Virus record (IMG/VR): IMGVR_UViG_2061766007_000941
Coordinates: 5,679 to 69,678 of that record
Length of the DNA: 64,000 nucleotides
Origin: a virus
Taxonomy: Duplodnaviria; Caudoviricetes
Direction: 5' to 3' (one strand)
Part shown: positions 7,805 through 51,326 of the stretch, in pieces
How the letters are laid out: each line of letters opens with the position of its first letter
Numbering within the stretch: position 1 is the first letter of the stretch
Translations under genes and position numbers: made by a program
Notes under the pieces: generated by a model
Seen by the model: only the letters and a program-made list of their open reading frames with translations
Database searches by the model: none
Told to the model about the DNA's origin: nothing

Positions 7805-9359
7805 TAGATACACCAAAGAAGGGTTCTTCAGCCATAGCATCTAATTCCTCTTCTTCATCATCTAGTTTTCTTTGAAGCTTAGTTCTAGTATCAACTTCTA
7901 CATCATCAAAGCCTATAGGAGCAATGTCACTTGAGTAGAATACTAGGAATAAACCATATGCATCTAGTGCATGGTCAAGACAACCTTTAGCTATTTGTCC
8001 TACATTTATATCATCATATACTGCATTGTCAAATTCATTTAATAGATTTGTACACAATCTAGATATTCTAAATATAGGAACACCATCAGCTCCTACTAAT
8101 TGAGTAGCTGAATGTAATTTGTCATAACGCATTTCAACTTTACCTTTACCTGAATCAACACCTATAGGGTTTAAACCATAGTACTCAAATACATCTGATT
8201 TCATTTCTCCTATAACTCTACCTGAATCATCACGATATCTATCTCCGTTACGATACATATCATGTGGTAATAGTGTAGCTGTTATGTTATAACCTTTACT
8301 TTGTTCTTTAATTTCTTTTACGAAATCTTCAAATATTAATTCTTGTCCATACATTTCTTTAAATGATATTACTCTTCCATCAGGGAATACTGCATGCCAT
8401 ATAGCAGAATGGTATGAAGGTTTATAACCCCAGTCAATAGATATATAGATGTCTGTTAACTCTGGGTTTTTATCTACTTCAGAGAATGCCAACTTAGGAT
8501 CAAGTATAGCTTCTTCTTTAACATCAAACATTCTACCAGCTACTACATCCCAGTTACCATAAAGATCCATTTGTTTTCTATAATCATCTTGCATTTCTAG
8601 CATTGCTGCATAAGATGCATTTAAGAATGGATTATCTTTATATGATGCTGGTATGAATCTAACAGTTACTTTAATATCACCTTTAGCTGTATGCATCATT
8701 TCTACATGGTCTTTAGTTTCAATAGGAGCATTTGTTACAGGGTCATAAGATACAACAGTAGTATCAATAAATCTTCTTTTAACCCATTTATGTCCTCTAC
8801 CTCCAGGGTTACAACCTAATACTACCTTAGTAGGTATTCTTAATGTTTTACCTGTATAAGGATTTGTTTGAACTGTAGAACGAACTGTAGATAACAAGTA
8901 ATTAAATGTTCTTTCATCTTGCTTAGTAACTTCATCAATAGCAAGATAATGAAATTCCCAACCTTGTTTACTTACTGCTTCTCTATAGTCAGCAACTCTT
9001 TGAAGAGTAATGTAACTACCATTAGGGAATATAATTGAACGAGATGGATACCAACTACTTGACTTTTCTCTGTAGTCATAGATTTGTTGACCATCTACTT
9101 TTTGTGGAAACAATGTAGGTAATTTATCTAGGAACGATTGTTTAACAGCATCAAGGTTTTCACGGATGATACAACATTTAGCTCCTGGATATGTGGTACA
9201 GAACATGAAGGCATCAGCGAGAATACCCGCTGATTTACCTCCACCTCTTGAACCACCATACAATGTTATGGATATCTCATCAAAGCTAACTGGTGCATTA
9301 TGTAGCATCAATTGCTTTGCATGAGGTTGATATGTTGGTGTGACCATTACAGTTGCCAT
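7785..9359 (-). CDS. terL: Terminase large subunit
   Basis: Walker A GGSRGGGKS, Walker B LAIDEVT, coupling motif GCNPGG, RNase H-like nuclease start ISIDWGY. Confidence 0.92.
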   Translation of the reverse strand: MATVMVTPTYQPHAKQLMLHNAPVSFDEISITLYGGSRGGGKSAGILADAFMFCTTYPGAKCCIIRENLDAVKQSFLDKLPTLFPQKVDGQQIYDYREKSSSWYPSRSIIFPNGSYITLQRVADYREAVSKQGWEFHYLAIDEVTKQDERTFNYLLSTVRSTVQTNPYTGKTLRIPTKVVLGCNPGGRGHKWVKRRFIDTTVVSYDPVTNAPIETKDHVEMMHTAKGDIKVTVRFIPASYKDNPFLNASYAAMLEMQDDYRKQMDLYGNWDVVAGRMFDVKEEAILDPKLAFSEVDKNPELTDIYISIDWGYKPSYHSAIWHAVFPDGRVISFKEMYGQELIFEDFVKEIKEQSKGYNITATLLPHDMYRNGDRYRDDSGRVIGEMKSDVFEYYGLNPIGVDSGKGKVEMRYDKLHSATQLVGADGVPIFRISRLCTNLLNEFDNAVYDDINVGQIAKGCLDHALDAYGLFLVFYSSDIAPIGFDDVEVDTRTKLQRKLDDEEEELDAMAEEPFFGVSIEEDYF

Positions 9360-12300
9360 TAGCTAACCTTCTTTCTCTTTTGATAATCACTTAGATTATT
9401 GTAATAAGGATTATTTATATAAGATTCTTCTTGGTCTAATAATTTAACAGGACCTTGATTCTTATTCTTATTGTATGTGTTTAGTGATTGAGTTTCATTA
9501 TAATCATTCTTCCATACACCCATTTGAGGTGATACTTCAACATTAATCTTGTTAATAGAACCATAAGGCTTATTGAATTGTACTTTTTTATTATTGTATC
9601 CATTATTAGGATAGTAAGTTACATAAGGTGCTTTCTTAGGATAGTATGACTTAGGATAACTTGAACCACTACCAGAATAAGTCTTGTTATAATACTTAGT
9701 TCTCTTTGGTAAGTATACAGATGTTGATTTCTTATTAGGGAACAACTCTTGTAGTAATGGATAGAATTCATTTTCATATTGGATTGCTCTTAATAAGTCT
9801 TTATATTCTTTAGAATTTAAAGTATTAAAGTATGCTTGCTTATCTGTAAGTGATTCTAATTTTCTTACAATAGAATGATTATTTAATACACTCTTAATTG
9901 TAGTTTCACTTACTCCATTATTGTATTGAGAAATAATGTAAGCATATACAGTAGCAGGTTCAACTTTATTCTTTAACATTTTCTTAAGCATGTTATTCAT
10001 CTCTTGATAATCATCTTTGTTATAAGAACCATATCTAGATTTAGTATTTCTAATTCTTTCCATTGAATCTGCTTCAATATAATCTTCTACCTCATCACTA
10101 TATGTACCATCAGATAGTTTATATTTATAATTCTTTAAGTCTGTTAATCTATTGTAATAGTTTGTAGTATCTTTTTTATAAGTCTTTTGATTTCCAAGGC
10201 TTGATGCAATACCTCTTCTAGCTCCCTTCATTAAAGAACTAGTAAATGTAGAGTCATCAGAGTACTTGTCAAACTTATACTGATCTACAATTGAGTTCGC
10301 TGTATTAGAACCTATTACAAATCCTAATACTTTTCTCATTCCGTTTTCAATTCTATCATATTGATATTTAGTGTTCATTAATGAACTTCCATAGATATCA
10401 TATCCTGACATAACTTCAACTGGAACTTTAATTGCTGGATTTAAATGAGATGTAATATTTGTATTAACAGCACCAAATATCTTTTCCAATAATGTTTTAT
10501 TATATGGATTAGTAAATGGTTCAATAAACATACTATTAACATTCTCTACAGGATTCATAGATGAACCTGACTTTTGTGGAGAACCACTAATTACAGTACC
10601 AACTAAATCTATTGTAGATAATTCTTTAACCATCTTATCTTTTTCATCTTCTTCTATTCCGAATAGATCACAAATCCAAGATGTTATTAACATAGATAAT
10701 CCTGTAATACCAGCTAATCCCATACTAGGAACTGCTGCAGTTTTTATCCATTGATCTGCATTATCAGAAGTAAATCCTTCCTTAAATAATTTTCCAAGGG
10801 ACATACCATAAGCACCCATTGTTCTTGCAAAGTTCATAGGGAATGTTGCATATAGCATTAATCCACTTGTTTTCTTAGATAATTCTGGGAAGCCTCCTGG
10901 TGAACCTAACATGTAATCCATTACCATCATTGCTTTATCTGCATTATTATCTAATGAATCAATAGCGTCTTTAGCAAAGTACATTGGACCATAGTTTGGT
11001 TTACCATTATCAAAGGATTCTTTTGCTGCAAGATATATAGCATATCTTCCTAAATGGTTTTGGAATTCTAATGGATCTGTTAGAGTATTTAATACTCTCA
11101 TAACTTTATCTGGTCCAGAAATATCCTCACTGAATGTAACAGGATCTTTACCAGTTAATCCAATAGGTTGTCCTTCACGCATCATATATTCTTTAAGTTC
11201 ATCACTCATTTGAGTTCCTTTAGATTGGAATGCTGCAAGTAATTCTCTTCTTGCTGGTCCCATATATTTAATAGTATTAGGGTCATACATAATACCCATA
11301 CTATAATCGAAACCTGTGAATGATATTAATCTATTTAATATCTTAGAAGGTAAGGCCATTTGTAATGCAGAAGACCATTTAGAGATTTCCTTTAATGTCT
11401 TCATTGTATTATTAGGAATCTTAGTAGTATAGATATGGGATTCTAAATGATCAGCAATATCATTTCTCATTAAGTAAATATCTCCACTTATAATCTTTTC
11501 TAAGATGAATTGATTCCACATAGTATCATTATAACTATTATAAGATATTTCCATGTTCTCAACTAAGTTAGCCATTGAAGAAGAACTCCAAGGATTAACT
11601 ACTCCACCTTTAACATATTTTTGACCATAAGCATTTACCAATGAATAACCATCTTGCTTTAATGCCTCAATGTAAGAACCCATTCTATTAGCAAAGTCTG
11701 TACTAGATTGAATCATTGATTGACCAATTAACATCTTAGCATAATAGAAATTAGCTATAGTCTTTGCTGAGTTCTTAACTTCTAGTGTTTCATTAGAATC
11801 ATTAGCAACTCTTTCAAAGTCTGTATAAGATCTTAAGTCTGATCTATTTGTAGTTTCTATAAATTTATCTATTAATAAATCTAATCTCATATCAACTTTA
11901 GAATACATATCTCTGTATTGTTTAAATGTAGTTTTATCTACACCGGTTGCAAATTCCATACCAGTTAAATCATTTATAACATTTAGAGTTTGTTCTTGAA
12001 TTTCTTTAGCAGCTGGATTATCTCTTAAGTATGTTTTGTCATCTGATTCAGAAACAACTTTATCTAATAAGTTACTTACACCATCTAGTAAAGTATCATT
12101 CTTTAACATATCTCCATTTATTAGAGTATCTTTAATTACTTTTGCTGAATGCATCTTAGATAATTCTTTGATAATAGATTCTGATGAATTCCATAAATCA
12201 AATTCTAATGTTGATGCTTGTTTATTTTCTTGAGATACAGGATTAAATCTTTGTAATCCTAAAGCATTCTTTATAGCAGAAGCTGCCTTTGCTTGATTAT

Positions 12301-15300
12301 AAGACTTACTTGTAGATTTATATGGAGCAATCATACCCATCAAACAATGTTCTAATGGTTCTCCTGTTTCCTTTGAAACCATAGCACTTAAATTCTTTAA
12401 TGATTCTAAGTGTTGTTTGAATGCTGCTCCGACTTCTGGATACATTTGATCAAAGTGTTGTAGCTTTTCAGCAACTTCATTTAGATTATTATATCCATGG
12501 TATTTTAAAGCCTCATTAATTGAACTGTCTTCTCTGGCATTAAATAGTGCTTGGCAAACAGTATATTCTTTTATTTCATTATCTGACATTCTAGACATAG
12601 CTATTTGTTTAAAGTTATTTAATATTGCCATTGGTTCTTGTTCAATATATAGAGCACCGGCAGATTGATTCTTCATCGCTACTGTAAGCTCAGCACCAAG
12701 CTCTGTATCTTCTTTAAGTCCTTGTCTACCCCAAACACTCTTCTCTAGAACAGATTCTTCTCCACCTGATAATATTCTAGCAGGAGCTATTTTAGATTCT
12801 GTATTATAATCAGAAACTTTAAAATTGTCTTTTACTTCTCCTGTTCTTTCATCAATTAAATCATTCTTTAATGATGAATATATGTTATCAAGTTCTTTAT
12901 CATATTTCTTAGTAGACATTCTGTATCTATCTTTATTAATATTCTCATCTAATGCTTTAGCATCAAGTGTTTCACTGTTAACTCTAGAATTTCTTAAAGC
13001 ATTATATGTTGAATAATTCCATACAGTATTCTTTGTTTGTTGTTGTAGTTCTTTAAGAGTACCAGTTATAGGAACATTCTTACTTAATACAATGTTTGGT
13101 TTTCCATCATCTCCCCATTGAACTGCAAGATGACTATCATAAATTTGATATAACTTTTTAGAATCAGATAAATCTAATCTCTTTTGTTCAATAGTATCAG
13201 TAGGATTTAAATTTTGTAATTGATATAACATCATTGCTACTTTAGCATAGTTACCTTTTAAATCTGTTTCTCCTGATATCATTAAGTTAATTAATTCTGG
13301 AGATATACCTTGTTGTCTAGTATTATTAACTTCCTTTGTTTCTGGTTCAGTTAATGAAACTTCAACCGGTCTATAACCAAGTCTATCTGCTTTATTTGTT
13401 ACAAGACCTGTCTTTCTACTTTGAGATTGTGGAATGAATTTTTGTAATTCATTATCTTGAGTAGTATATTTAGAACTCCAGTTTCTGAAATTATTTTCCA
13501 TATTTGCTGTATTCTCTACAAATGTAGAATAAGGTAATAAACCTTGCTTATACATTTCTTTTACTTTATAAGAGTTGATACTTGAAACACCACCATTTAA
13601 TAATGTGAAGAAATCATATGGTGATAAATAGTAATCTTCATGATTAGTCATACCCTTACCAACATTCATTTCATCAGGACTTAAATGTACTGTTCTACCT
13701 TTATAAGTGCTTAAGTTAGTAGAACCATCAGCATTCATATTTGTTTGTGATGTTATATCATTCTTACTATAAGCTCCAAATGGATCAGTTCCCTCAGCTC
13801 TTGATCTTCCATAATCACCTAACAATGCAAGTCCTGCTTCACTAAATAATCTCTCACCTATAGGATCATCAATCTTATCTTTAAACTTTAATCCTAATGT
13901 GTAAGCGATACTTGTATATTTATCTGTAGCAAGATACATGTTATTAGTTAAATTATGTCTAAGTTTATTAGCATCCATTGTTGTATGGAAAGCATCTTGT
14001 AATTCTTTATCAGTTAATCTGTTAATTATATAGGATATCTTAGCTCTGTTGTATACTCCAAGGAAGTTTTCGTTTTGTACATCCTTATAAGGTTTCCATA
14101 CAGAGTTTCTTAAATCTGCATAATCTTCTGGATTTGTAACTAACTTACCATCTTCTATCTTACCACCAAACATAAAGAAACTATTTATTGTATTAGCATT
14201 CATTACAACATGTAATGCATCTACATTTCTTTCTCTATCTTTTTCCCAAGCATGTGTATCTTCTACAATCTTAGGTGTGGCTTCAGTATAGAATCCATAA
14301 GCAGTTATTTTCTTTCCATTAGAATCTCTTAATGTGATAGCAGTTTCTGTAGTATCCATAGCTTTATTACTTCCGATAGATAGCTTAGAAGGATCTGGTT
14401 TATTTAATAGGATAGATACATCAGCGTCAGTAGAGAATGTACCATTAACTACACCTTTACCTCCGATATCTGTTGCAATCTTGTAACCATTATCCAAGAA
14501 ATCTATTTGTTGTACATAAACTGTATTTCCTTTAGCACCTGCTATTCTAGATAATCTATTAAGTGTCATAGGATTTTTACCAGTAGTAATTTTTGTACCA
14601 GCTTTATAATATTTTCCTATTTCTAAATTAGCTAGTTTATCTTTAGGACCTATAGTATATTTCTTTAAAGTATATCCTGCTAATTGATTTTCTTTATCTT
14701 TGCCTTTGTTATTTATTAATACAGTATCTTCACCAATACCAATAGGGGTTTCAGATTTACCATAGTGTGTTATAACAAATGCTTTTACAGGTTTTGAATC
14801 TCTAAAGATATTTTTATTATAAGAATCACTATTATCTGTAACAAGTTTATTGATTAAAGAATTTAAGTTATAATCAACAGCTTGACCATATAAACTATTA
14901 TCACTTGGTAAATAGAATTGTGTCTTAGCTAGTTCATTATATAACTCAATATTCTTTTGAGTAGCCTTAATTCTATCTTGCATTATTGCATATTGTTGTA
15001 TCATTTTGTCTGACATTAATGCTTCATTTAATCCTGTAGGGTCCATAGAAGTTAATTGAGCTTCTTCAATTCTTCTTAACATTTGATCATACTTATTAAA
15101 TGCTGCAGATATATAGCCATTCTCTAAATCCTTAGTCATTTCATTGATACTAGGCTTCATTATATTTTCAATGTCTGAATAATAAGGAGAGCCCTTATAA
15201 GATTTTGAAACAGCTTCAATTATTCTATCTCCTAAGCCATCTATAAGTTCTTTGTTATTAGGATCAATATTATCAAAGTATTTAGCTACTGTGTTAGAAC

Positions 15301-18300
15301 CATAGATACCTGCTGCTAATAAATCTGTCCATGCATTATTAATAGTTTTATTTTTTAATTTATTAATAGCATATTTTTCATTAACACCTGTTGTTTGGTC
15401 AATAAAGTTATATAAGTATTTATTAACTAACTGACTATCTTCTGCTCTTAATCTTTCTTGACCAGAGAATGTAACAGGTACACTATATGTTTTACCATTT
15501 AAAGTTACTTCTCTATTAGTATCAGAAGCATAGATAGCAGGGTTATTAATATATCTAATAGGTGCAACACTTCCAGTGTCTTCATATAAAGTTTTTTCTA
15601 CAAAGCCTTTAACTTTGTATTTTCCTTTTTCATCTAACTCAATATCAAAGTCTGTTGCTACTAACCATAAGTCTTTTAAAACTTTTTTGATATCTGCTTC
15701 TGGATAATTCTTAGCTATATAATCTGTAAACTCTTCTGTTTTATCTAAGAATGTTTTTTCATTAGGTATTATACCTTTCTCTAATAAAGCATCAGCATCT
15801 TTACAAAGCTTTATGATTTGTTCATCTTTACCTATAGTATTAATAATTAAATTCTTTTCTTTATAACCATCATAGTAAACACCATTAGATCTTAAATAAT
15901 CTAAGACATTCTCTTGAATATTATGAACTTTATATTTTTCATTTGTATAAAGTTTTAATACATCTTGAGTGTAATCTTCTGGTTTTAATAGAATTAAGTG
16001 GTCACCATCGAAGTCACGAGAACCTAGAGTTTCAATAACTGTTTCTGGTACTAACATATAATTACCTTTTAGAGTTGTATCGACTACTATTCTTCTTGGT
16101 AAGATCTTATCATTAGCATCTGCTGGATGAATTAATAATTGTGAATATAACTCAGCATCTTTAATTGGATCATATTCTCTGCCCATTAAGTTTCTAAATT
16201 GATTTGGAGATAATACTACCATAGATGAATCTGCAACAACAGCATTATTTGCTCCTGTATTTATTTCTTTACCAACAGGTAATGCATCAATAAGATCATA
16301 TAAACCTTTTTTAGATTGAGCAATTACTGCATCTACATCTCCATAGTTATTTCTTAAATAATCCATGTACATATTTGATATCTTAGTATTTATTAGTTTT
16401 ATATCATTACCTAATAAATCTTTAGGATTTACCCCATTTCTGAATGAACATATAGTAGCCATATCAGAAAGGAAGTCTTGTTCATCAGCAGTATTTGAGA
16501 ATCTTAATGCCTTAGTAATTTCATGGAATGTATCTACAAAGTCTTTATTATTCTTTAAAGCTTTATATTTTTGGAATTGTTTTGGATCAAGATCTTTATC
16601 TTTATAAGGATCTGTATCAAACAACTTATATGTAGCAACCTCATCTTCTATTTGAGAAGGGTCTATACCAAGGTTAGTCATGATTCTTTCTACTCTAGCT
16701 TCATTACCTAAAGTTTCTAATAATGAATTCATATCTGTACCAGAACTCTTCATTTCAATTCTTATAGCATTTATGAATTTATCTTTAGGAATATCATTAG
16801 CTTTTGCATATGACCATAACTTATTTATTACTAATTGTTTATTATCTGATAAAGATTGTAATGCTTTAGAAGATAAGTAGTTATCCATAACTTGTTGATC
16901 TTTAATAGCATAAGCAGTAGCTGCATATCTTTTATTCATCATGTATTCAAAGATATCAGTAGCAGCTGTCACAGTATCTGTAGTTATAGATTTATCATAA
17001 TCAAAGTAATCTTTAAGACTAGGTTGTTTTAGTTGAGCATCCTTAATCTTATCATCTACTTTTCTTAATACTGACTCTAATTGATCATCACTAAGTTTAA
17101 TATTGTTTTCATCTAATGTTTTCTTTAAATCTAAATATAAGAAATCTCTTATGGATTTAAGATTAAATGTTGCATTTACAACTTTAGCAAACATATCTTG
17201 TGTAACATCAGCATCATATAAACCTGAGTGAGCTCCTTGGTTAATAAGTTCAAATTCCTCAGCTCTTATATCTTTTTTACCACTGTTCTTTGTTTCTATA
17301 GCTTGTGAGTTATCACTTAGTGTTTTAACATCCACATGTGTGAATTTAGATAATAGTTCATCATCAAACATATTACCTGTTTTCATCCAAGGTACATCGG
17401 CTTCTGTTGTATTATATCCTAATAAGATACTTCCTTCTTTTGCATATTCATTAAAGAACTCTTTTACTTCAGAAGGTTTTAGATATAGAGTTGAATCATC
17501 TATATGATCATAAATGTTTTTATACATTTCTACAGTATCTCTGTAACCTTTATTATCTTTATAGAAGCTACTATTAAAGTCAATGTTATCTTTAATCCAT
17601 TGTTCTCTTAATTTTGTTTTAGCCGCTTCAGTCATGTTATTAGATTCATAATTAACAAAGATATTATAATGCTTAGTTTCCCAACCATCTTTAGTTCTTG
17701 TTTTAACATTAACACCTATATTGAATACTCCTTCATCATAATCTTTAGCATCCATCTTTAAGGATGTTTCTGTATCGAAAGATACAATAGTGTTGTACTT
17801 TGATTGAATTGTATTATCATCAAAGCTCTTTACTAAATCTAATAATTCTTTTGTGTTAAGTCTTGCAGGCTTATCATTATCATAATTAATAGTAAAGCCA
17901 TCTTTAAGATCATTTGATTCATATTCTTTTTTCATATCTAATAGAGATCTATCTCTGACTAAGAAATCTATTGTAGGAGCATCCTCTTTATCTACTAAAG
18001 ATTTTAAAATTAATCTTTCAGCTTGTTCTTGAGGTGTGTAGTTCTTTCCATCTTCTTCAATTAGATTAATAGCATTCTTGATGTCAGTAACTAATTGTCT
18101 TCTTTCAGGTGTCATATTGTCTATGTTACCTAAACCGTAAGATAAATTAACTAAAGACCTTACTGCCTTATTATTAGTTCTGTATTCATCTACAGTATCT
18201 ATACTATTTTCAACAGCATCTCTAACAGCACTATTCATTGTTACAGGATCTCCATCTTTCATTAGGTTGAAGAATTCTCCTTTAGATATATGAGCAACTT

Positions 18301-21300
18301 CAGCTCTTTCTCTAAAGATATCATAGATTCTTCTATTTCTTTGAATAGATGAAAGATTGTCTACAGGAACTTTATTAAGAAGTTCTTGAACTCTTTCTGG
18401 GTTAATATTACCCCCAAAGATATCTTGTTCTAGTTGTGTAACATCCTTATACTCTGTCCCTCTTCTTAAGTAATAACTATTATCCATAATGAAATGTCTA
18501 TATAAGTCTGTAACAAAGTCATCAAAGTTTTCATCTAGATTCATATAAGAAAGCTTTAATGCTGCAGTGTTTCCAATATCTTGTGAGTCAGCTTTTATAA
18601 TAGTACATCCTTTTAGTTCTTCTTTAGCTTTATGTAAATTAAATAATAAATCATTATAATTAGCAGAACTATATTTATCTAATAAGTCTGTATTACCATC
18701 TTTTAATGAACCATTCTTAACTATAAAGTAGTTAGCAGTTTCACCGGCATATTCAACACCTTGATGTAAGTTAACAAGTGTTGCAGCAGTGTGCATTAAT
18801 TCTTCTGTATTAGCATCTTTGAAAGTTTCTTTCAATTCATCAAATGTATTAAGAACTGTTTTCATATGTCCCATAGCATTATGTGCATAAGAATATCTTT
18901 CAACATCACTAGCATAAGGAGCAGATGTATATAAGTTTCTATCCTCTAGGATTCCGTTAGTTAATGTATCATAAAATTCATTATCTAATAAATCTTCAGA
19001 TGTATTAATTAATTTATTAAATGCTTTAGTTTTGTCATCATCTATATCAGCAATAGAGTTTTGAATATATTTAAACATTCTATTATGATCACTATCTAAA
19101 CCATCTTTAGCATTAATATATTCATCTCCAACTTTAACAGGTAAGGAACCAATGCCAGCATAAGCATCATCTACTAATGAAGGACCATTATTGACTACAT
19201 GCTTTTGACTAACTTCCATTTGCTTTTGTGCAAGCTTAGTATGTTTCTTGGCTTCTGCAAATATAGAATCTACAACATCATTATACTTAGAACCCCATAG
19301 TTCTTTTAGTGTAGGTATTAAAGTTTCTTTTACTTTGAATGAAACATCTCTATTATCCATAGCTTGTTTATAGTTTTCTGCAAGCATATCAGCAACTTCA
19401 TCTATGTCTTGAATTGGAATGTAACCATCATTACCTATTATACCTTTAAGTAATCTAGTAGGATCATCTTCAACATATTTAGTTACAACATGTTCAGTGA
19501 AGAATGCTTGTCTATATTGATTATCTTCTTGAGTCATTATAGATTTAATCATATCAACAGCATCTTGTACTGTCTTCATGTTAACCCAAGCAGTATCACC
19601 TTTAACTTCGACATTATCCCAACTACCTAAAGCTGCAGCCATTCTTTCAGAACTTACATAAGTTTCATCTGGATTACCAGCTTTACCTACATAATATCCT
19701 GGAATAGTTGATTTACTATTAGGAGTACCATAAACTCTTCTTTCACCATCAGTTATAGGTTCAAAGTAAGCTTTTAATTTGTTAACAAGTTCTGTTGTTA
19801 CTTTTCCACCATTCTCTGTGATGGAATCTAATAATATATTTCTTGTTGTTTTATTCTTAATTAATATTCTATGATTCTCATATTCAGAACTATCAGATTG
19901 ATGTGTTAATTCATTGAATGCATCAACATAAAGTTTAGTCATGATATCATAAGGATTTTTAGAAGTCTTAGCATATTCATACCAATCTTCAAATGTTTCA
20001 TGTGAAACATCTTCTCTTACATATCCAGCACCTTCAATAGGATTGAAATCTCCTTCTTTGTTTATAACTTCATTTAAGAATTTAACATATCTAGAGTTTT
20101 CTTCGTCATCCCAAGGCAATCTCATATTAAGGATATCAAATCCTGTTTCTCTATTATGTCCAGGTAACGCTTGTTTTAAACCTTCAGTTGTATGTGTAGC
20201 AAATGCATCTATGATACCTTGTTCACCTTGTTCTTTAAGTTCTTGTAATTGTAATGGTATAAGTTTATGAATATTAAAGTTTTCAGAAACTACATAATCC
20301 ATTACTTTATCTTTAGTTATTCCTGGTTTTAATTCTAAGTAATAAGAATCATTACCATTACTTAAAGTTCTACCAGAAACTTTCCAAATGTTATCTGCAT
20401 ATTTTTTAGAAGTAGCTCTATGACCATCAGCATAATTATTATCTTCTAGCCATTTAACTTCATCTTTAGATAATCTGATATTTGTATAATCAGACTTGAA
20501 TATATTATCTACTAATAATTCACAAATGAAATAATTCTCTAATTGTGAATTATATTTAACAGGAGAACCTGCTGACTTAGTTAATAAATAAGTTAAGTCT
20601 TTACCTGTTTGTCCTGCTAATTTACCAGATAACTTTCTTAAGTTCTCAACATTACCTAACATAGCTTGAGCTATAGGCATTGAGAAATTATATTTACCAT
20701 CTTTGCTTTTCTCGAAAGGTATTAATTGTAATAATGGAGCTTCCTTTAATGTTAATTGAAGTTTAGGATCAATGTTCTTTAATTCAACTTGATCTAGTAT
20801 AGCCCTTTCAATATCTATTGTTTGAAGCTTATTACCTTTCATGTCTTCAAAGATTTTATTATTTAAATCATATGTTAACTTACCAATAGTTATAGAACTC
20901 TTAGTAGCTAGTTGATCTTTTAATTCCTCTATGTTATTAACTCTAGGAACATTCAATACAACAGTGTTTCCTGTGAAACTCTTTACACCTTTAATGTGTC
21001 CAGTTAATTGTTTTATTTCTTGAGGATTCTTTCCTGCTACATCATATCCAAACTCTCTCATGAAATTGATATAGTCTTCAGGATTTGTATCAAGATCAAA
21101 CATAATTAAACTACTATTTTGTTTAGACCATTGTGTAAGTTTATTCATATCATTATATAAATCTGATTCATATTTAGCATATTCTTTAGCATTTCCTATA
21201 TTTTTAATGTTAGAAGAACCTACTCTGAATAAATAATCAGTGAAGTCTTGAGTTGTTTTACCTCTGAATGTATTTAAATCAATATAGATTTTATTGCCTT

Positions 21301-24300
21301 CCATAGTAATTGTTTTACCATTATCATAGATATCATCATATTGTTTAGCAAAGTCTATAATAGATTTATATACATCAGTCTTCTTGAAATCATCTAATGA
21401 TTCTTCTTTATAGTTTCCAACCTCATATAGATATGCTGCTATATCTTCAGGTTTGCTACCTTCATTTAATCGACTCAAGTCTAAATTCTTTGGGAGCATA
21501 TTCTTGAATCGATCATCCATTTGGCTTTCAATGAATTTTACTTTACTTGATAGGCTCCCATTTTGAAAAGCTTCAGGGTTTTCCTTAACAGCTTTCATTA
21601 TCTTATTGTAAGATTCTTCAGATAATTCCCCAGATTTCTTAAGGTCTGTAAATACTTGCATTACTACAGGATCTGTTAAATCTATTTGAGATACTTTATC
21701 TTTTTGTACTTTTAATAATACATCAGACATTGTAGTCAAATAATTATATGCTGCAGTTGCTTTTGTATCTTTTACATTCTTTAAATCTACTTTAGCAATA
21801 TAACCTTTAGCACTTAAGCCTAAGAATATTTCTCCAGCTTGTTTAGGAGTTATGAAAGGTTTATTATTACTATTCTTACCTTCAGATTCAACAGTAGATA
21901 ACTTATGTAGTATAGAAGATATTACTGCAGTCTTTTGTCCTTCAGTAACATTAGTATCCATTAAACCTTTTGATAAGTTATTAATAATTTCAATCTTATC
22001 TGCTTTAGATGCTTTAGTAGTTAAAGCTAATATAGATTGATGGATTAAAGTATTTACTGTAGAAGTATTTAAATAATCTATTTGATCAAAGTATGGTTGA
22101 ACTTTATAAACTACTTCACCATTTAAATCAATCTTTTGTAAGTAACCTAAGTCTGCAGAAATGTCTAATGCAATTTCATTAGCTTTATAATCTTGAGTTC
22201 TTTCTCCAGAGTTTGGTAAGTATAAGTATTGATTATTAGCAGCAGTAGGATCTTGTTCTTTAAGTTTCTCAAATAAAGCTTCATTCTTTTTAGCCATTGT
22301 ATAACCTGTTTGAGAAATTAAATCTTTACCACTAACTTTATCTCCAATAACTTCTTGAGCTTTCTTAATATAATTTTCATACTCTTGTCCAACTATTACA
22401 TTCTTTAATTGTTCAATAGTTGCATCAAAGGAACTATTCTTAACTTCTTGAGCTTGGAATGTTTTCTTATCTCCAGATACTCCTGTTAAGAAGTCTGCTC
22501 CTCTCTTTATAGATTTTAAAGGAGAAGTAAATACAGATATTAAGGAAGGTTTTTCAAAGTCAGCTGGGTTAGAATATTTTTCAATACGGGCTAACTTAGA
22601 AGCATATATTAATTCTGCATTCTTATAAATTTCTTTTAATCTATCTCTTTCTGCTGTGATTCTAGATTCATCTAATACTTCTCTTAATATCTTAGGAACA
22701 TCTTCTCCAGGTTTCTTTAACCCTTCAGATAATTGATCCATAGCATATAAGATCTTTCCTTCATAGGATACAGCATCAGGAGCTTGTTCTAAATCTCTAA
22801 TATATTTATTTTTAACTTCTATTAATGCAGCTTGTTTCTCACCTTTAGCATTAGCTATTTCAGAATCAAACTTAGAAAGTAATTGTGTATGAGATCTACC
22901 AATAGTTTCTAGTCCTGCATTCCATTCTTTTATTTGGCTTCGTGTTGAATACCATAAAGTATTAATTGCAGAACGAGCAACATTCTCAAAGCTTAAACCT
23001 TCACCAACTGCTTTAGCAATATTGAAGTCTTTAAGTTTACCATTCTCATCTAATCCAGATAAACCTGAGATAGAACCTGTTAACATATTACCTGCAAAGT
23101 CTGCAGCTGAGTTAAATGCAATAACACCTGCTCTAGATAGTAAGTATTTCTTTAATGTACCTTTAACATTATTACTTAGTTCTTGTTTTAAACCTTCACT
23201 AGTTTTTTGAGTAATTAATCTGTGTACTTGTTTTGCCCAAGCTTTTTGAGCAGTATCACTAAATACTCCAGCATCTCTACCAAAGTATGCTTGGAATTGA
23301 TTATCATCCATACCACCAGATATGAATGTATCAATAGCTAAGTTAATACTATTAGTAACTACCGATCTTTTAAATATATCTAAATCACTTGCACCTTCTT
23401 CATATAAGTGTGCAGTTGTAATATTCTTTCTTGTATCATTAAGCATGTTCTTAGAGTTTGCTACGAAAGCAGCTCCGAATCTTCTACCCCATACTTGAAG
23501 GTTTGCACTCTTCCAATTTCCAGCTAATAAGTCTTTAGTGGCATTAATTGGACCATGTGCCATAGCACCTGTATTAGTACCAATGTTACCTGTTTGCCAT
23601 TTAAGTACTGTACCAGTTCCTTTAACTATCTTACCTCCGATAGTATGACCAGATGCTTCTAATCTTTGACCCCATCCCATTAGACCTGTACCTTTTGTTG
23701 CGGCAGATGTTGCAGTACCTGCATCACCAACTGCACCTATGATACCTGCTAATGTCATAGTACCAGCGATTGTACCAGCCATTGAACCAATGAAGTTAGC
23801 TACATCTTGTCCTGATACAGATGAGTCTAGGTCAACATAACCTGTGTCAACTAACCAAGGTACATCATCATTAAGCCAACCATCAAAGCTATTAGACCAT
23901 TCAAAGAAGTCATCACTATCTATGCCATCCCAGAATCCTGCATCTCCTCCGAAGACTGCTGATATAGGAACTGCTGATTCAATAGTGTTTAATGCAATTA
24001 GTCCTAGGTCTGCAATACCAGTAAATACCTTAGCAAATCCTGATGATGCAGATCTACCAAAGGAAACTAATCCATTATTATTTAAATCTATTCCTTCGAA
24101 TGAACCATCTGCTTTTTGTTTTAATGTTCCATGACCTTCTCCACCTTTACCATCTAGTACATAAAGTTTTCCATCTGTATGTAGATAGTAGTATGTTCCA
24201 GTAGAGTCTTGAGTCATTCTTGCTTGTGCAGCGATTGATCCATTATGTAATGCTTTGAAGAAATCCTCATCACTTAAGTTTTCCTTAAAGTTCTCCATTT

Positions 24301-25072
24301 GTGGAAATAAATTTTGAACTTTATCTGCATCCATGTCATCAATCTCTTTGCCTACAAGGTTAGCAAGCTGAGTTTCTCTAATATCTGAATGTGCATATTG
24401 TCCAGCTAATCTAGCTTGGTGATAATTCTCAGCAGCTTGTTTAACTTGTGACATTAAGTAGTTATTAGTAAATGGGTTCGAGAAGTCATTGTTCAAGAAC
24501 TTATTTTGCCAGTAAGCTACACTAGTTACATCGTAACCCATAGTTGCAAGGATATCTCTACCATATGCTTCCATTAAGGCATCATCATATGAGATTTTTC
24601 CCTCGTCTACTTGCTTGAAGATTTGATCATATCTTTCTTGAGCTAGTAGTTCTTCATGTGCATACTCATAACCTGGTAATGGAGAGCCTCCTTGGTTGAT
24701 GTAGTTTGTGTAAGTATCTGTGTAGTTACCATTTTCGTCCATCAAGTTAAGTTTGGACATTATCTCATCTCTAGTAGTGAACCCATTAGAGAACTCTGAT
24801 TTCTCTAGGTCTACTGGTTTTGAGATTTTCAATGTAGGTTCTGTGATGGTAGGTATACCAGCAAGAACATTATCCATTGCTTGTTGTCTACTAAAGTTAG
24901 ATTCCTCTTCTAACTTTGTGACTTGTTTCTCTATTTGGTCCTGTTGTGTTTTGTTCGGAGCAAACCCAAGATTAATATCTGTGGTTGTGTCCGTGTTGAT
25001 GTTTACTGCCGCTAGGTTATTGTTATCATCCACTTGGATATTACCTAAGCCAGTAATGTCATTAGATTTCAT
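9359..25072 (-). CDS. Giant (~5,240 aa) polyvalent protein: putative virion-packaged two-barrel RNA polymerase with DEDDh exonuclease
   Basis: ORF track 9359..25114; the RBS GGAAGGAGG favours the start at 25072. LGSRDFDGDH at nt 16001-16015; GYKIATDIGGKGVV at ~14447-14488; FDTET/GYN..EAD/HSGLYD exonuclease motifs at ~17210-17780; hydrophobic Gly/Ala segments near both ends. Confidence 0.72.
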   Translation of the reverse strand: MKSNDITGLGNIQVDDNNNLAAVNINTDTTTDINLGFAPNKTQQDQIEKQVTKLEEESNFSRQQAMDNVLAGIPTITEPTLKISKPVDLEKSEFSNGFTTRDEIMSKLNLMDENGNYTDTYTNYINQGGSPLPGYEYAHEELLAQERYDQIFKQVDEGKISYDDALMEAYGRDILATMGYDVTSVAYWQNKFLNNDFSNPFTNNYLMSQVKQAAENYHQARLAGQYAHSDIRETQLANLVGKEIDDMDADKVQNLFPQMENFKENLSDEDFFKALHNGSIAAQARMTQDSTGTYYYLHTDGKLYVLDGKGGEGHGTLKQKADGSFEGIDLNNNGLVSFGRSASSGFAKVFTGIADLGLIALNTIESAVPISAVFGGDAGFWDGIDSDDFFEWSNSFDGWLNDDVPWLVDTGYVDLDSSVSGQDVANFIGSMAGTIAGTMTLAGIIGAVGDAGTATSAATKGTGLMGWGQRLEASGHTIGGKIVKGTGTVLKWQTGNIGTNTGAMAHGPINATKDLLAGNWKSANLQVWGRRFGAAFVANSKNMLNDTRKNITTAHLYEEGASDLDIFKRSVVTNSINLAIDTFISGGMDDNQFQAYFGRDAGVFSDTAQKAWAKQVHRLITQKTSEGLKQELSNNVKGTLKKYLLSRAGVIAFNSAADFAGNMLTGSISGLSGLDENGKLKDFNIAKAVGEGLSFENVARSAINTLWYSTRSQIKEWNAGLETIGRSHTQLLSKFDSEIANAKGEKQAALIEVKNKYIRDLEQAPDAVSYEGKILYAMDQLSEGLKKPGEDVPKILREVLDESRITAERDRLKEIYKNAELIYASKLARIEKYSNPADFEKPSLISVFTSPLKSIKRGADFLTGVSGDKKTFQAQEVKNSSFDATIEQLKNVIVGQEYENYIKKAQEVIGDKVSGKDLISQTGYTMAKKNEALFEKLKEQDPTAANNQYLYLPNSGERTQDYKANEIALDISADLGYLQKIDLNGEVVYKVQPYFDQIDYLNTSTVNTLIHQSILALTTKASKADKIEIINNLSKGLMDTNVTEGQKTAVISSILHKLSTVESEGKNSNNKPFITPKQAGEIFLGLSAKGYIAKVDLKNVKDTKATAAYNYLTTMSDVLLKVQKDKVSQIDLTDPVVMQVFTDLKKSGELSEESYNKIMKAVKENPEAFQNGSLSSKVKFIESQMDDRFKNMLPKNLDLSRLNEGSKPEDIAAYLYEVGNYKEESLDDFKKTDVYKSIIDFAKQYDDIYDNGKTITMEGNKIYIDLNTFRGKTTQDFTDYLFRVGSSNIKNIGNAKEYAKYESDLYNDMNKLTQWSKQNSSLIMFDLDTNPEDYINFMREFGYDVAGKNPQEIKQLTGHIKGVKSFTGNTVVLNVPRVNNIEELKDQLATKSSITIGKLTYDLNNKIFEDMKGNKLQTIDIERAILDQVELKNIDPKLQLTLKEAPLLQLIPFEKSKDGKYNFSMPIAQAMLGNVENLRKLSGKLAGQTGKDLTYLLTKSAGSPVKYNSQLENYFICELLVDNIFKSDYTNIRLSKDEVKWLEDNNYADGHRATSKKYADNIWKVSGRTLSNGNDSYYLELKPGITKDKVMDYVVSENFNIHKLIPLQLQELKEQGEQGIIDAFATHTTEGLKQALPGHNRETGFDILNMRLPWDDEENSRYVKFLNEVINKEGDFNPIEGAGYVREDVSHETFEDWYEYAKTSKNPYDIMTKLYVDAFNELTHQSDSSEYENHRILIKNKTTRNILLDSITENGGKVTTELVNKLKAYFEPITDGERRVYGTPNSKSTIPGYYVGKAGNPDETYVSSERMAAALGSWDNVEVKGDTAWVNMKTVQDAVDMIKSIMTQEDNQYRQAFFTEHVVTKYVEDDPTRLLKGIIGNDGYIPIQDIDEVADMLAENYKQAMDNRDVSFKVKETLIPTLKELWGSKYNDVVDSIFAEAKKHTKLAQKQMEVSQKHVVNNGPSLVDDAYAGIGSLPVKVGDEYINAKDGLDSDHNRMFKYIQNSIADIDDDKTKAFNKLINTSEDLLDNEFYDTLTNGILEDRNLYTSAPYASDVERYSYAHNAMGHMKTVLNTFDELKETFKDANTEELMHTAATLVNLHQGVEYAGETANYFIVKNGSLKDGNTDLLDKYSSANYNDLLFNLHKAKEELKGCTIIKADSQDIGNTAALKLSYMNLDENFDDFVTDLYRHFIMDNSYYLRRGTEYKDVTQLEQDIFGGNINPERVQELLNKVPVDNLSSIQRNRRIYDIFRERAEVAHISKGEFFNLMKDGDPVTMNSAVRDAVENSIDTVDEYRTNNKAVRSLVNLSYGLGNIDNMTPERRQLVTDIKNAINLIEEDGKNYTPQEQAERLILKSLVDKEDAPTIDFLVRDRSLLDMKKEYESNDLKDGFTINYDNDKPARLNTKELLDLVKSFDDNTIQSKYNTIVSFDTETSLKMDAKDYDEGVFNIGVNVKTRTKDGWETKHYNIFVNYESNNMTEAAKTKLREQWIKDNIDFNSSFYKDNKGYRDTVEMYKNIYDHIDDSTLYLKPSEVKEFFNEYAKEGSILLGYNTTEADVPWMKTGNMFDDELLSKFTHVDVKTLSDNSQAIETKNSGKKDIRAEEFELINQGAHSGLYDADVTQDMFAKVVNATFNLKSIRDFLYLDLKKTLDENNIKLSDDQLESVLRKVDDKIKDAQLKQPSLKDYFDYDKSITTDTVTAATDIFEYMMNKRYAATAYAIKDQQVMDNYLSSKALQSLSDNKQLVINKLWSYAKANDIPKDKFINAIRIEMKSSGTDMNSLLETLGNEARVERIMTNLGIDPSQIEDEVATYKLFDTDPYKDKDLDPKQFQKYKALKNNKDFVDTFHEITKALRFSNTADEQDFLSDMATICSFRNGVNPKDLLGNDIKLINTKISNMYMDYLRNNYGDVDAVIAQSKKGLYDLIDALPVGKEINTGANNAVVADSSMVVLSPNQFRNLMGREYDPIKDAELYSQLLIHPADANDKILPRRIVVDTTLKGNYMLVPETVIETLGSRDFDGDHLILLKPEDYTQDVLKLYTNEKYKVHNIQENVLDYLRSNGVYYDGYKEKNLIINTIGKDEQIIKLCKDADALLEKGIIPNEKTFLDKTEEFTDYIAKNYPEADIKKVLKDLWLVATDFDIELDEKGKYKVKGFVEKTLYEDTGSVAPIRYINNPAIYASDTNREVTLNGKTYSVPVTFSGQERLRAEDSQLVNKYLYNFIDQTTGVNEKYAINKLKNKTINNAWTDLLAAGIYGSNTVAKYFDNIDPNNKELIDGLGDRIIEAVSKSYKGSPYYSDIENIMKPSINEMTKDLENGYISAAFNKYDQMLRRIEEAQLTSMDPTGLNEALMSDKMIQQYAIMQDRIKATQKNIELYNELAKTQFYLPSDNSLYGQAVDYNLNSLINKLVTDNSDSYNKNIFRDSKPVKAFVITHYGKSETPIGIGEDTVLINNKGKDKENQLAGYTLKKYTIGPKDKLANLEIGKYYKAGTKITTGKNPMTLNRLSRIAGAKGNTVYVQQIDFLDNGYKIATDIGGKGVVNGTFSTDADVSILLNKPDPSKLSIGSNKAMDTTETAITLRDSNGKKITAYGFYTEATPKIVEDTHAWEKDRERNVDALHVVMNANTINSFFMFGGKIEDGKLVTNPEDYADLRNSVWKPYKDVQNENFLGVYNRAKISYIINRLTDKELQDAFHTTMDANKLRHNLTNNMYLATDKYTSIAYTLGLKFKDKIDDPIGERLFSEAGLALLGDYGRSRAEGTDPFGAYSKNDITSQTNMNADGSTNLSTYKGRTVHLSPDEMNVGKGMTNHEDYYLSPYDFFTLLNGGVSSINSYKVKEMYKQGLLPYSTFVENTANMENNFRNWSSKYTTQDNELQKFIPQSQSRKTGLVTNKADRLGYRPVEVSLTEPETKEVNNTRQQGISPELINLMISGETDLKGNYAKVAMMLYQLQNLNPTDTIEQKRLDLSDSKKLYQIYDSHLAVQWGDDGKPNIVLSKNVPITGTLKELQQQTKNTVWNYSTYNALRNSRVNSETLDAKALDENINKDRYRMSTKKYDKELDNIYSSLKNDLIDERTGEVKDNFKVSDYNTESKIAPARILSGGEESVLEKSVWGRQGLKEDTELGAELTVAMKNQSAGALYIEQEPMAILNNFKQIAMSRMSDNEIKEYTVCQALFNAREDSSINEALKYHGYNNLNEVAEKLQHFDQMYPEVGAAFKQHLESLKNLSAMVSKETGEPLEHCLMGMIAPYKSTSKSYNQAKAASAIKNALGLQRFNPVSQENKQASTLEFDLWNSSESIIKELSKMHSAKVIKDTLINGDMLKNDTLLDGVSNLLDKVVSESDDKTYLRDNPAAKEIQEQTLNVINDLTGMEFATGVDKTTFKQYRDMYSKVDMRLDLLIDKFIETTNRSDLRSYTDFERVANDSNETLEVKNSAKTIANFYYAKMLIGQSMIQSSTDFANRMGSYIEALKQDGYSLVNAYGQKYVKGGVVNPWSSSSMANLVENMEISYNSYNDTMWNQFILEKIISGDIYLMRNDIADHLESHIYTTKIPNNTMKTLKEISKWSSALQMALPSKILNRLISFTGFDYSMGIMYDPNTIKYMGPARRELLAAFQSKGTQMSDELKEYMMREGQPIGLTGKDPVTFSEDISGPDKVMRVLNTLTDPLEFQNHLGRYAIYLAAKESFDNGKPNYGPMYFAKDAIDSLDNNADKAMMVMDYMLGSPGGFPELSKKTSGLMLYATFPMNFARTMGAYGMSLGKLFKEGFTSDNADQWIKTAAVPSMGLAGITGLSMLITSWICDLFGIEEDEKDKMVKELSTIDLVGTVISGSPQKSGSSMNPVENVNSMFIEPFTNPYNKTLLEKIFGAVNTNITSHLNPAIKVPVEVMSGYDIYGSSLMNTKYQYDRIENGMRKVLGFVIGSNTANSIVDQYKFDKYSDDSTFTSSLMKGARRGIASSLGNQKTYKKDTTNYYNRLTDLKNYKYKLSDGTYSDEVEDYIEADSMERIRNTKSRYGSYNKDDYQEMNNMLKKMLKNKVEPATVYAYIISQYNNGVSETTIKSVLNNHSIVRKLESLTDKQAYFNTLNSKEYKDLLRAIQYENEFYPLLQELFPNKKSTSVYLPKRTKYYNKTYSGSGSSYPKSYYPKKAPYVTYYPNNGYNNKKVQFNKPYGSINKINVEVSPQMGVWKNDYNETQSLNTYNKNKNQGPVKLLDQEESYINNPYYNNLSDYQKRKKVS

Positions 25073-25122
25073 ATATTTCCTCCTTCCACTCTCGGTGGTC
25101 ATTTGGATTACCATCCAATTAA

Positions 25123-25131
25123 ATTATATCA
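25123..25131 (-). promoter_or_regulatory. Extended -10 (TGaTATAAT) upstream of the giant gene
   Basis: Overlaps the stop of the 57-aa ORF; followed by two short hairpins and the RBS. Confidence 0.5.
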
Positions 25132-25302
25132 TTTCTTTGTCTTCTTGGCTATTATACTCTGTATTTGAGCCATGGATAACCAATGTCGTTTTCCGGTCTT
25201 ATCTGTAAGCCTCCATCTAGGAGTCTTGCGTGATTGGTCTGGTTGTATTTCTCTGTATACTTTACCATCATGATAAAGATAACCCTTGCCGAATGTGATC
25301 AT
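25129..25302 (-). CDS. Small basic protein, 57 aa (MITFGKGYLYHDGKVYREIQ...IIAKKTKK), not in ORF track
   Basis: AGGAGG-5nt-ATG, open 174 nt, promoter 25 nt upstream. Confidence 0.75.
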   Translation of the reverse strand: MITFGKGYLYHDGKVYREIQPDQSRKTPRWRLTDKTGKRHWLSMAQIQSIIAKKTKK

Positions 25303-25327
25303 GTTAACCTCCTCTCTCTATATATTT

Positions 25328-25356
25328 AGTATAGCACTTCTGTCCACTGAAGTAAA
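25328..25356 (-). promoter_or_regulatory. SigmaA-type leftward promoter
   Basis: TTTACT-17-TATACT with TGc extension; spacer contains the GTGGACA half-site. Confidence 0.6.
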
Positions 25357-25363
25357 CGAAAAG

Positions 25364-43625: not shown

Positions 43626-43657
43626 ATATTTATTATACTATTCAGTTAATTAATGTG

Positions 43658-49224: not shown

Positions 49225-49337
49225 AAAAAAGGAACCGTTCGGCTCCCTTTCGTGTCGATCCTTACGGATTTGTTGAAGATTAACATGATCACAACAACGA
49301 CAAGACCTTTAACTTAGAGAGGCAGGTTTCCCTACCT
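49225..49337 (-). ncRNA. Putative ~112-nt structured sRNA (sRNA-1)
   Basis: Perfect TTGACA(49372-49367)-17-TATAAT(49349-49344); GGTAGG-GAAA-CCTGCC, TTGTTG-16nt-CAACAA and ATCC-GTAA-GGAT hairpins; terminator GGAGCC-GAAC-GGTTCC-T6. Confidence 0.75.
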
Positions 49338-49361
49338 ATAACCATTATAAGGTATGTACAA

Positions 49362-51326
49362 TTATTTGTCAATCAATGTATCTCCATCAACTATCAAGTT
49401 ACATTCCTCTGCAATCTCAGTTTCAAATCTAGTTGAACGAACTGATTTAAATCCATTAAGCTCACACCATAGTGTGTATTCAGAATATATTTCATCAAAC
49501 TTTTTACTTTTAAGATACGCCGTTGTAATCTTCTTAGCATTAATCCAACTAAGAACACTTGAGTTTTCAATCTTATATTCTTGCATAATTTCTTTAACAC
49601 TATCTGGCATTGTAAACTCATGACTAGATGTAAGAACTTTTTGAATTGCATACATGCTTTTATAAGCTATATACTCTAAATCTTTCATTAAATCATCATG
49701 GAACTTTGCTCCATCAACAAGACTTACTTTACTTAAGTTTGCATTGAATGGAATGATTATTAATTTTCTATAGAAACCATAACTTGTATCTGGTGTACGA
49801 GGTAACTTGTTTGCTGAGAAGAATAATGTCGCAAACACGGTGTCCGAGAATGGATGTGCATTCTTTCTCTCTATAGTTATTTCATCTCCACCACATATTT
49901 GTTTAAATAGGTCACTATCTTTTAAAGGTTGTGCTGATATATCACCACTAAGTGATACCAATCTATTGTGTAATTCAGCAACTCTAAACTTTTCTCCTAA
50001 ATCTTTAAATGAAATACTGGTACAATTTTCTCTTCCAGCTATTTCCTTAATGATATCTAGGAATGTACTCTTACCATTTCTACCTCCACCATATAATAGA
50101 AATGCTTTATGTAATGCTTGAGTCTTTAGGAAACTATATCCGATAGCTTCATATAATAATCGCTCACAGTCTTTATCTCCACAAGTGGCTGTAGCAAAGA
50201 AGTCATCAGCTGTAGGTCCCACAGCATCTGGATTCCAGTTAACATGTAACTGAATTGTTTCTAAATGTTCTGGACTATGAGGTTCAAAACTCATATCCTT
50301 TAAGTCTAGTCTACCATTTAAGAAAGAAACTTTGAAAGGATCTTTATTAAATTCAGTAGGACTAAGCTCTAATAAATTATTTAAATACTTTATTACTTCA
50401 ACTTTTTGAAAGTCTTTTAACATAGGGCAGAACTTTGTAATCACACCCTTAACATAATCATCATTACTTACATAAAGACCTTTCTCCTCATCATAATAAT
50501 ATAAGAGTTTAGTCTTTGCATCCTTTTTAATCTTTAGGAAATCTATTAGGAAATTTCCCATTAGGTCATGTTTAAATGTAGAACCATCAAAGAACTTTTG
50601 CTCTGGAAGGTTCTCATTATTACTAGGTCGTAGCATTGTATCCTCCATCTCTTTTTCAGATAAAGGACTAGTTGCTACATATTTATTAATTAATCTAATG
50701 CATTCAGTTCTTTCATCAGGAGATAAGTTTGTAGTCTTTAATCTCCATAGTTGTCTATTATAAGTATCATTTCTAGCTTCCTTTAAAGGAAATTCTATGA
50801 AGTTATCCTCTGGTTTCTTACCTCTTTTAAATATAGGTGTTAACCAGAATGGCAACTTCTCAATACCATTATAATAAATAACCTCTCTATCAGATAATTT
50901 CTTACTGGTATTTATTCTTGGGTTTTTAAAAGCTGTTGTTATAAATGACTTTCCATTGCAATGTACAATAGTGTCACAGAATGCTCCAACAGCTGTAATA
51001 TTACAGACAGTTTTTATATTGTAATCACTCTTGGCATAGATGTGCATACCTCTATGTGTTTTAACACACATAACTTTTTCTTTTCTGTCTTGTATTATTT
51101 TAAAAACTATATCAGATGTTGTCCTGTCATCAATATCTATAACAATATATCCTTCAGGAAGTAGCCACCCTATTTCCATATCAGGTTCTGTGTTTGCAAT
51201 CTTAACTATTTCAGTGAATGTCAGAGGAGTTAGCTTTTGTCCGGTAACCGGTTTGCCTTCATGTAATCTTACATAGCCAGCACGGTTGCCATTGTACTTC
51301 TCATTAAATTCTTTAAAAGTTATCAT
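49362..51326 (-). CDS. Primase-helicase (prim-pol N-terminus, P4/D5-type SF3 helicase)
   Basis: VIDID and KTHRGMHIY primase motifs; YGGGRNGKST Walker A; FSANKLP. Confidence 0.88.
   Translation of the reverse strand: MITFKEFNEKYNGNRAGYVRLHEGKPVTGQKLTPLTFTEIVKIANTEPDMEIGWLLPEGYIVIDIDDRTTSDIVFKIIQDRKEKVMCVKTHRGMHIYAKSDYNIKTVCNITAVGAFCDTIVHCNGKSFITTAFKNPRINTSKKLSDREVIYYNGIEKLPFWLTPIFKRGKKPEDNFIEFPLKEARNDTYNRQLWRLKTTNLSPDERTECIRLINKYVATSPLSEKEMEDTMLRPSNNENLPEQKFFDGSTFKHDLMGNFLIDFLKIKKDAKTKLLYYYDEEKGLYVSNDDYVKGVITKFCPMLKDFQKVEVIKYLNNLLELSPTEFNKDPFKVSFLNGRLDLKDMSFEPHSPEHLETIQLHVNWNPDAVGPTADDFFATATCGDKDCERLLYEAIGYSFLKTQALHKAFLLYGGGRNGKSTFLDIIKEIAGRENCTSISFKDLGEKFRVAELHNRLVSLSGDISAQPLKDSDLFKQICGGDEITIERKNAHPFSDTVFATLFFSANKLPRTPDTSYGFYRKLIIIPFNANLSKVSLVDGAKFHDDLMKDLEYIAYKSMYAIQKVLTSSHEFTMPDSVKEIMQEYKIENSSVLSWINAKKITTAYLKSKKFDEIYSEYTLWCELNGFKSVRSTRFETEIAEECNLIVDGDTLIDK

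Follow-up and report, generated by a model that had tools for sequence, protein, structure and literature searches.

The stretch of DNA analysed here, referred to below as the window, is 64,000 nucleotides (64 kb) long and covers most of the genome of an uncultured phage of a ~70-kb type from cattle rumen. The whole genome has 69,678 bp with a G+C content of ~31%, and its first 50 bases are repeated ~276 bp from the genome end. Three genes on the minus strand are of concern in this study: a giant gene with an ORF of 5,251 aa (9359..25114), a small gene of 57 aa directly upstream of it (25129..25302), and a gene for a D5-type primase/helicase (49362..51326). The last of them is convergent with a 215-aa ORF, and the gap of 255 bp between the two is the site of the small RNA discussed below, sRNA-1. 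A search of public runs shows that the sRNA-1 stretch is contained in gut metagenomes of bovine and other ruminant origin that stem from 13 studies, and no RNA run is among the public runs listed as carrying the sequence. GenBank phages have no DNA match to either the sRNA-1 region or the 57-aa gene region, and the protein matches to the primase among them are at most 31% identical. The host is probably of a low-G+C Gram-positive type. A complete relative of 71.3 kb, G003 (L036 / G003:C33, JAGCWW010000069.1), was placed by binning in a yak-rumen MAG of the Acholeplasmatales; binning alone being weak evidence, we take this as a hint of the host, and it agrees with the low G+C content and the strong GGAGG Shine-Dalgarno (SD) sites.

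The promoter predicted for sRNA-1 is TTGACA-17-TATAAT, of the sigma-70/sigma-A type (49344..49372, minus), and its -35 box is formed by the last primase codons (I-D-K-stop). The earlier note had called it perfect, and indeed it scores 12/12 when read from 49372 to 49344; it is the one perfect site of this kind in the 64-kb window, against 0.09 expected. The note had also described a non-coding transcript of ~112 nt with two GNRA hairpins and a terminator, which is in accordance with the 113 nt predicted by us (49225..49337, minus), where the start is inferred 6-7 nt past the -10 box and the end is the U run. From the 5' end, the predicted RNA consists of a terminal hairpin of 7 bp with a GAAA loop, beginning at the predicted +1 (49320..49337); a single-stranded linker that forms a conserved block in the alignment (49298..49319); a second hairpin with a loop of 16 nt, in which lie 16 of the 19 nt of the seed (49275..49293); a small third hairpin of 4 bp with a GUAA loop (49258..49269); and an intrinsic terminator (49225..49251) with an 11-bp G+C-rich stem and a GAAC loop, followed by six U, all of them on the minus strand. 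The seed has a mean unpaired probability of 0.54, and its two halves behave differently in the family: the 3' half, ending in UCUUC, is conserved, while the 5' half varies between lineages. The minimum free energy of the RNA is -37.1 kcal/mol (z = -3.4), and 1 of 200 shuffles is equally stable. In Rfam, sRNA-1 has no family match either at the gathering score or at E <= 10, and the tRNA scan finds nothing. Two other readings of the locus were rejected. A small ORF on the sRNA-1 strand has its ATG within the -10 box and is not conserved; and sRNA-1 as a cis-antisense RNA is ruled out, since the strand opposite 49225-49337 is intergenic between the convergent genes.

Relatives of the phage were reached via primase homologues in IMG/VR, JGI, ENA, Logan and one GTDB MAG. 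On the whole, 14 distinct variants from ~70-kb rumen phages, with primases 65-90% identical, were examined, and in all of them the sRNA-1 unit lies directly after the primase stop codon with a common layout: the -35 box in the last primase codons, the -10 box, six bases, the 5' hairpin, the linker, a stem with a large loop, and the terminator. TTGACA and the -10 box are kept in 14 of the 14. In the RNAalifold analysis of the relatives' alignment, both sides have changed in 13 of the 23 consensus base pairs; compensatory changes occur at four of the six aligned pairs of the 5' hairpin, the distance of which to the -10 box is conserved, and the terminator stem covaries strongly among the variants. 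The third hairpin is confined to the window lineage and the L019 type, where its loop is GAAA. The alignment has indels whose lengths are not divisible by three, and in no relative is a gene called at the position. The covariance model of sRNA-1 finds exactly one copy per genome, and a pattern scan of IMG/VR gives one true locus and one chance match (L052). Past the terminator the sequences of the relatives are unrelated, while the unit itself is ~90% identical. The closest relative is the L019 type (Ga0310691_10000526), with 84% identity in the primase and ~90% in the sRNA. Of the 14 variants, 10-12 show hardly any change in the linker and in the 3' half of the loop. At a finer scale, comparison of four bovine-gut DNA runs, taken from different studies, shows an invariant sRNA-1 body next to primase codons that vary, and the sole change in the RNA lies in the terminator loop, at 49237. 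One gut-metagenome contig has a third loop variant, which equals the window up to 49283 and then continues into an A-rich spacer like that of the L019 type, showing that loop variants of sRNA-1 coexist within one sample. With a unit of promoter, hairpin, loop and terminator after the primase in every relative examined, and with stems that covary, the earlier claim of a phage sRNA is well borne out: the comparative support is strong, and we predict that sRNA-1 is very probably a genuine sRNA gene.

The gene proposed as its target belongs to a small conserved family, found just upstream of the ~5,200-aa giant gene in every relative read. A word search with the 57-aa protein returns two clusters only, which understates the family, and further homologues are located by position in G003, G004, L059 and L060; on the gene map of the L019 type, a 66-aa gene stands at the same place, ahead of a giant gene of 5,270 aa. 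The protein has no Pfam or PHROG match. Its AF2 model, with four strands and one helix, has a pLDDT of 69.5, and the fold search with this model gives no significant match, with weak SH3/KOW-like rows at E > 0.3 and none in Atlas. Upstream of the gene lies a promoter-like site, TTTACT-17-TATACT with an upstream TG (25328..25356, minus); if it is used as a promoter, reading from 25356 to 25328, the gene would have a 5' UTR of ~20 nt. Another promoter-like element, with a TG-extended -10 box, overlaps the small-gene stop codon directly upstream of the giant gene (25123-25151, minus). This placement is kept in every relative, L038, L050, L059 and L060 also included, and suggests that the giant gene could be transcribed from a promoter of its own. 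The 57-aa ORF had been taken to open the virion/RNAP transcript; with a promoter-like -10 site between it and the giant gene, this is not established.

Several further features are seen around the two genes. Just upstream of the 57-aa promoter-like site there are tandem hairpin-like units of the form GGGGA-N-TCCCA (25360-25400, minus), which the distant L016 retains with altered inner bases (1400-1450), and upstream of these units follows a strongly conserved block of ~35 nt (window ~25440-25475). In the L008-type phage, an additional ORF of 58 aa lies between the 57-aa-family gene and the giant gene (L059 2445-2621, minus), and phages that are otherwise near-identical (L059 versus L060/L061) differ in a mosaic fashion in the module that precedes the giant gene. 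The JGI gene calls on Ga0310691_10000526 (L034 / L035) read TGA as Trp, with some small ORFs lengthened; the giant ORF of this contig is open under the standard code, so the reading looks like a pipeline artefact and not like recoding.

In the window genome, sRNA-1 pairs with the start of the 57-aa gene in one long helix. The proposed target (25294..25312, minus) comprises the SD (GGAGG), a spacer of 5 nt, the AUG and the next two codons, and sRNA-1 49293..49275 forms with 25312..25294 a gapless duplex of 19 pairs, 14 of them consecutive Watson-Crick pairs, followed by five that include two G-U, both of which fall on the SD. Collinear with it, a further helix of 7-8 bp joins the 3' part of the linker (49304..49298) to codons 4-6 (25285..25291, minus). 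The gapless 19-nt pairing with two G-U over the SD and AUG, and the 16 of 19 seed bases in a loop, are thus as the earlier note had described them, except that the target had been placed at 25313-25295, one position off. In L014/L015, a strain variant has U for C in the target, and the pair is preserved as G-U. Cofolding of sRNA-1 and target gains -30 kcal/mol, with the 5' hairpin, the third hairpin and the terminator retained.

When both strands of the whole 69.7-kb genome are searched for trans duplexes, the target start gives the strongest (-39.5/-41.3), with the runner-up at -32.6. Among the start regions it ranks 1 of 87-88 by the energy of the whole core (-38.9; mean -17.6, sd 4.7), 1 of 87 by the loop alone (-27.7 versus -15.8 for the next, a margin of ~12 kcal/mol), and 1 of 87 by helix length (18-19 versus 12 for the next). 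None of 150 dinucleotide-shuffled sRNA cores and none of 150 random genomic 71-mers reach the observed pairing; for a random genomic 71-mer, the probability of at least 19 contiguous Watson-Crick and G-U pairs with any start region is 0.0053, a significance that is weaker than computed if the match was spotted first and the RNA afterwards (post hoc selection). Our analysis shows that, in the window genome, the accessible seed is complementary to the SD and AUG of the 57-aa gene beyond chance. The second-best start region for the core is that of 31478-32014 (plus), with a multi-helix duplex of -34.4 kcal/mol (z ~ -3.6).

Next we report the pairing in relatives, where the sRNA and the target can be compared within the same genome for four pairs: the window, G004, G003 and the L008 type. 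For G004 (IMG/VR, 71.8 kb, primase 65% identical), the start of the homologous 56-aa gene ranks 1 of 85 (-32.0; mean -17.7, sd 4.1), with helices of 10, 8 and 10 bp over the SD, the AUG and codons 3-5, whose sequences are unlike those of the window; by the loop alone it ranks 13 of 85. In G003 (primase 66% identical), the homologous start comes at rank 14 of 81, with a 7-bp anti-SD helix only; in the L008 type, for which 30 kb of one ENA record were read, its rank is 49 of 58. Cognate pairing beats cross-genome pairing for the window and G004, and the cognate diagonal is third of the 24 permutations. L060/L061 have early genes in common with the L008 type but a different homologue of 53 aa. 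Its start region, beginning with the SD and ending with the initial nucleotide of the start codon, pairs perfectly with the family-consensus loop over 13 bp, two of them G-U; the sRNA of these two phages is not on the contigs themselves. When the consensus type is compared with the window type, changes in the loop are matched by changes at corresponding positions of the start region immediately past the SD, as co-evolution would predict. The loop of the L019 type has three changes, one of which would face the G of the AUG in an unchanged register. Ranked by mean z-score, the 57-aa family comes first among 37 ortholog groups (-1.99) and second with the window left out. No other phage gene among these groups consistently matches the loop, and no consistent site is found for the linker, the best sites of which are non-orthologous between genomes. 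In the Acholeplasmatales MAG, the loop-complement pattern has 8 matches versus 1 in the control, a count that is not interpretable. Conservation of the complementarity, on which the earlier note had set weight, is therefore mixed: G004 and the consensus match of L060/L061 speak for it, while G003 and the L008 type speak against it. The same holds for the claim that sRNA-1 blocks translation of the 57-aa gene, which the statistics and thermodynamics in the window genome favour, while the relatives keep the match only partly. Since relatives retain the pairing only in part, the 57-aa gene is a plausible target, not a proven one.

Based on the features observed so far, namely the anatomy, its conservation, the covarying stems and the complementarity beyond chance, we infer expression, timing and repression in the following scheme. 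The host RNA polymerase would transcribe sRNA-1 from the consensus promoter embedded in the end of the primase gene, and the RNA would be stabilised by its protective 5' hairpin and its own terminator. The loop of hairpin 2 would serve as a U-rich anti-SD motif, with a lineage-specific extension that would read over the spacer, the AUG and codons 2-3 of the 57-aa gene. Pairing would nucleate loop-first on the SD and AUG and zip into the linker, giving 19 and then 7-8 bp; the duplex would occlude the ribosome-binding site at ~8 nt from the mRNA 5' end, so that the 30S subunit would be excluded and initiation blocked, and it may also open the 57-aa mRNA to decay. As to timing, sRNA-1 would be an early, constitutive RNA restraining the gene at the head of the virion module. 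That sRNA-1 acts in trans in this lineage by blocking the ribosome-binding site of the 57-aa gene is, as judged from sequence, about an even chance.

A different reading accepts sRNA-1 as a real sRNA but places its main conserved partner elsewhere, in host mRNAs or in several phage starts recognised through the U-rich anti-SD loop and the linker, the 57-aa match then being coincidental or newly acquired in this lineage. In the 10-12 variants mentioned above, linker and 3' loop half stay near-invariant while the starts of the 57-aa family differ, a hint that some other partner is the more conserved one. For G003 and the L008 type, there are start regions that pair with the loop better than that of the 57-aa family; the start of an SSB-like gene is within the top three loop matches in two relatives; and a true CCUCC anti-SD is present in another small RNA candidate of this phage. 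Against such a partner, only the 57-aa family scores consistently among the ortholog groups, the best sites for the linker are not orthologous across genomes, and in the window the 57-aa start is ahead of all others by ~12 kcal/mol with the loop alone. We consider this reading unlikely on balance, though with a real share of the probability.

The two remaining explanations dispense with specific mRNA pairing. Lying immediately past the primase stop codon and facing a convergent gene, the unit might be simply the 3' end of the primase operon, a terminator or 3'-UTR stabiliser between convergent genes with an incidental promoter-like site, and read-through from the operon would also stop at its terminator. 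This is very improbable: a mere terminator needs neither a 5' hairpin at fixed spacing after a perfect promoter nor a conserved loop of 16-22 nt, the perfect promoter, the single one of its kind in the window, has been preserved in every variant, and the unit stays ~90% identical where the sequence past the terminator diverges fully. Least probable of all in our judgement is a decoy RNA, the loop of which would mimic the 16S rRNA 3' end or bind a phage or host RNA-binding protein, with no specific mRNA pairing. By inspection, the loop motif does resemble the rRNA anti-SD with U replacing C, and conserved single-stranded blocks are typical of protein-binding sites; but a decoy leaves unexplained both the match of 19 and 7-8 bp in the window and that of 10, 8 and 10 bp in G004. 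Pairing of sRNA-1 with the start of the 57-aa gene is the most probable of these readings.

Known regulators resemble sRNA-1 in part. The anti-SD sRNAs of Firmicutes, of the RsaE/RoxS and RNAIII type, pair with GGAGG-type SD sequences by pyrimidine-rich loops; they have a 5' stem-loop and a Rho-independent terminator, and act with C-rich motifs and seeds of 6-12 nt on many targets. sRNA-1 is similar to them in its anti-SD loop, 5' hairpin and terminator, whereas its loop is U-rich, with two G-U on the SD, and extends past the AUG into one gene. Among phage RNAs, the loops of the c4 RNA of P1/P7, to which the P4 CI RNA is related, pair with a distant, non-overlapping phage ribosome-binding site and block translation (PMC12197685). 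The likeness to c4 is that of a structured phage RNA of ~80-110 nt, with loop pairing in trans near a phage ribosome-binding site and a specificity that differs among related phages. Unlike c4 and P4 CI, sRNA-1 has no match to the Rfam C4 family or to any other Rfam family; it has its own promoter and terminator, while c4 is processed from the operon it controls; its proposed target belongs to another gene block at a distance of 24 kb; and its phage is of ~70 kb, uncultured, and encodes a giant protein of ~5,250 aa, while the c4 phages are temperate and enterobacterial. With no model match, its own promoter, no processing from the target operon and another phage type, sRNA-1 is not a member of the C4 family. 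DicF of the Qin prophage is a short phage-derived RNA that pairs in trans with a start region and blocks translation (PMC12197685). sRNA-1 likewise has its own terminator and a predicted start-region pairing in trans; DicF differs in acting on the host target ftsZ, in depending on Hfq and in being processed from a longer transcript, whereas the best target of sRNA-1 is a phage gene and the pairing is far longer (19 bp and more). The aQ RNA of lambda is a further phage RNA that represses a phage gene by pairing (PMC12197685). Together with lambda OOP and P22 sar, aQ is transcribed opposite its target and fully complementary to it, while sRNA-1 is encoded 24 kb from its proposed target.

A second RNA candidate, sRNA-2, is seen at 43562-43661 (minus), where a promoter close to consensus overlaps the stop codon upstream and the short predicted transcript ends in a terminator with a GAAA loop. 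It has a true CCUCC-type anti-SD stretch resembling the 16S rRNA 3' end. sRNA-2 follows the design principle of sRNA-1 and, by the covariance model, is not its paralogue.

To our knowledge, very few cases have been described of trans-acting RNAs by which phages regulate their own genes, mostly in temperate enterobacterial phages. By its predicted structure and pairing, sRNA-1 is a new, unannotated RNA family of a known regulator kind, and it comes with a concrete target that is open to testing. A striking match in a single genome needs relatives, and here the relatives back the target only partly. Going further, the loop and the start of the small gene could be a co-evolving, lineage-specific lock and key that serves as a timing gate for the virion module and could silence a superinfecting relative of the same type, as compared with the heteroimmunity by c4 in P1/P7; together with the RNA at 43562-43661, it could form an RNA-based layer of translation control in a clade with no cultured member. 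This extended picture is speculative, and we hold it to be rather improbable as a whole. The clade that carries sRNA-1 is formed by widespread, uncultured ~70-kb phages of cattle, yak and sheep gut with a protein of ~5,200 aa; if confirmed, sRNA-1 would mean that these phages also control their virion module by an RNA switch, and would give Rfam a new phage family.
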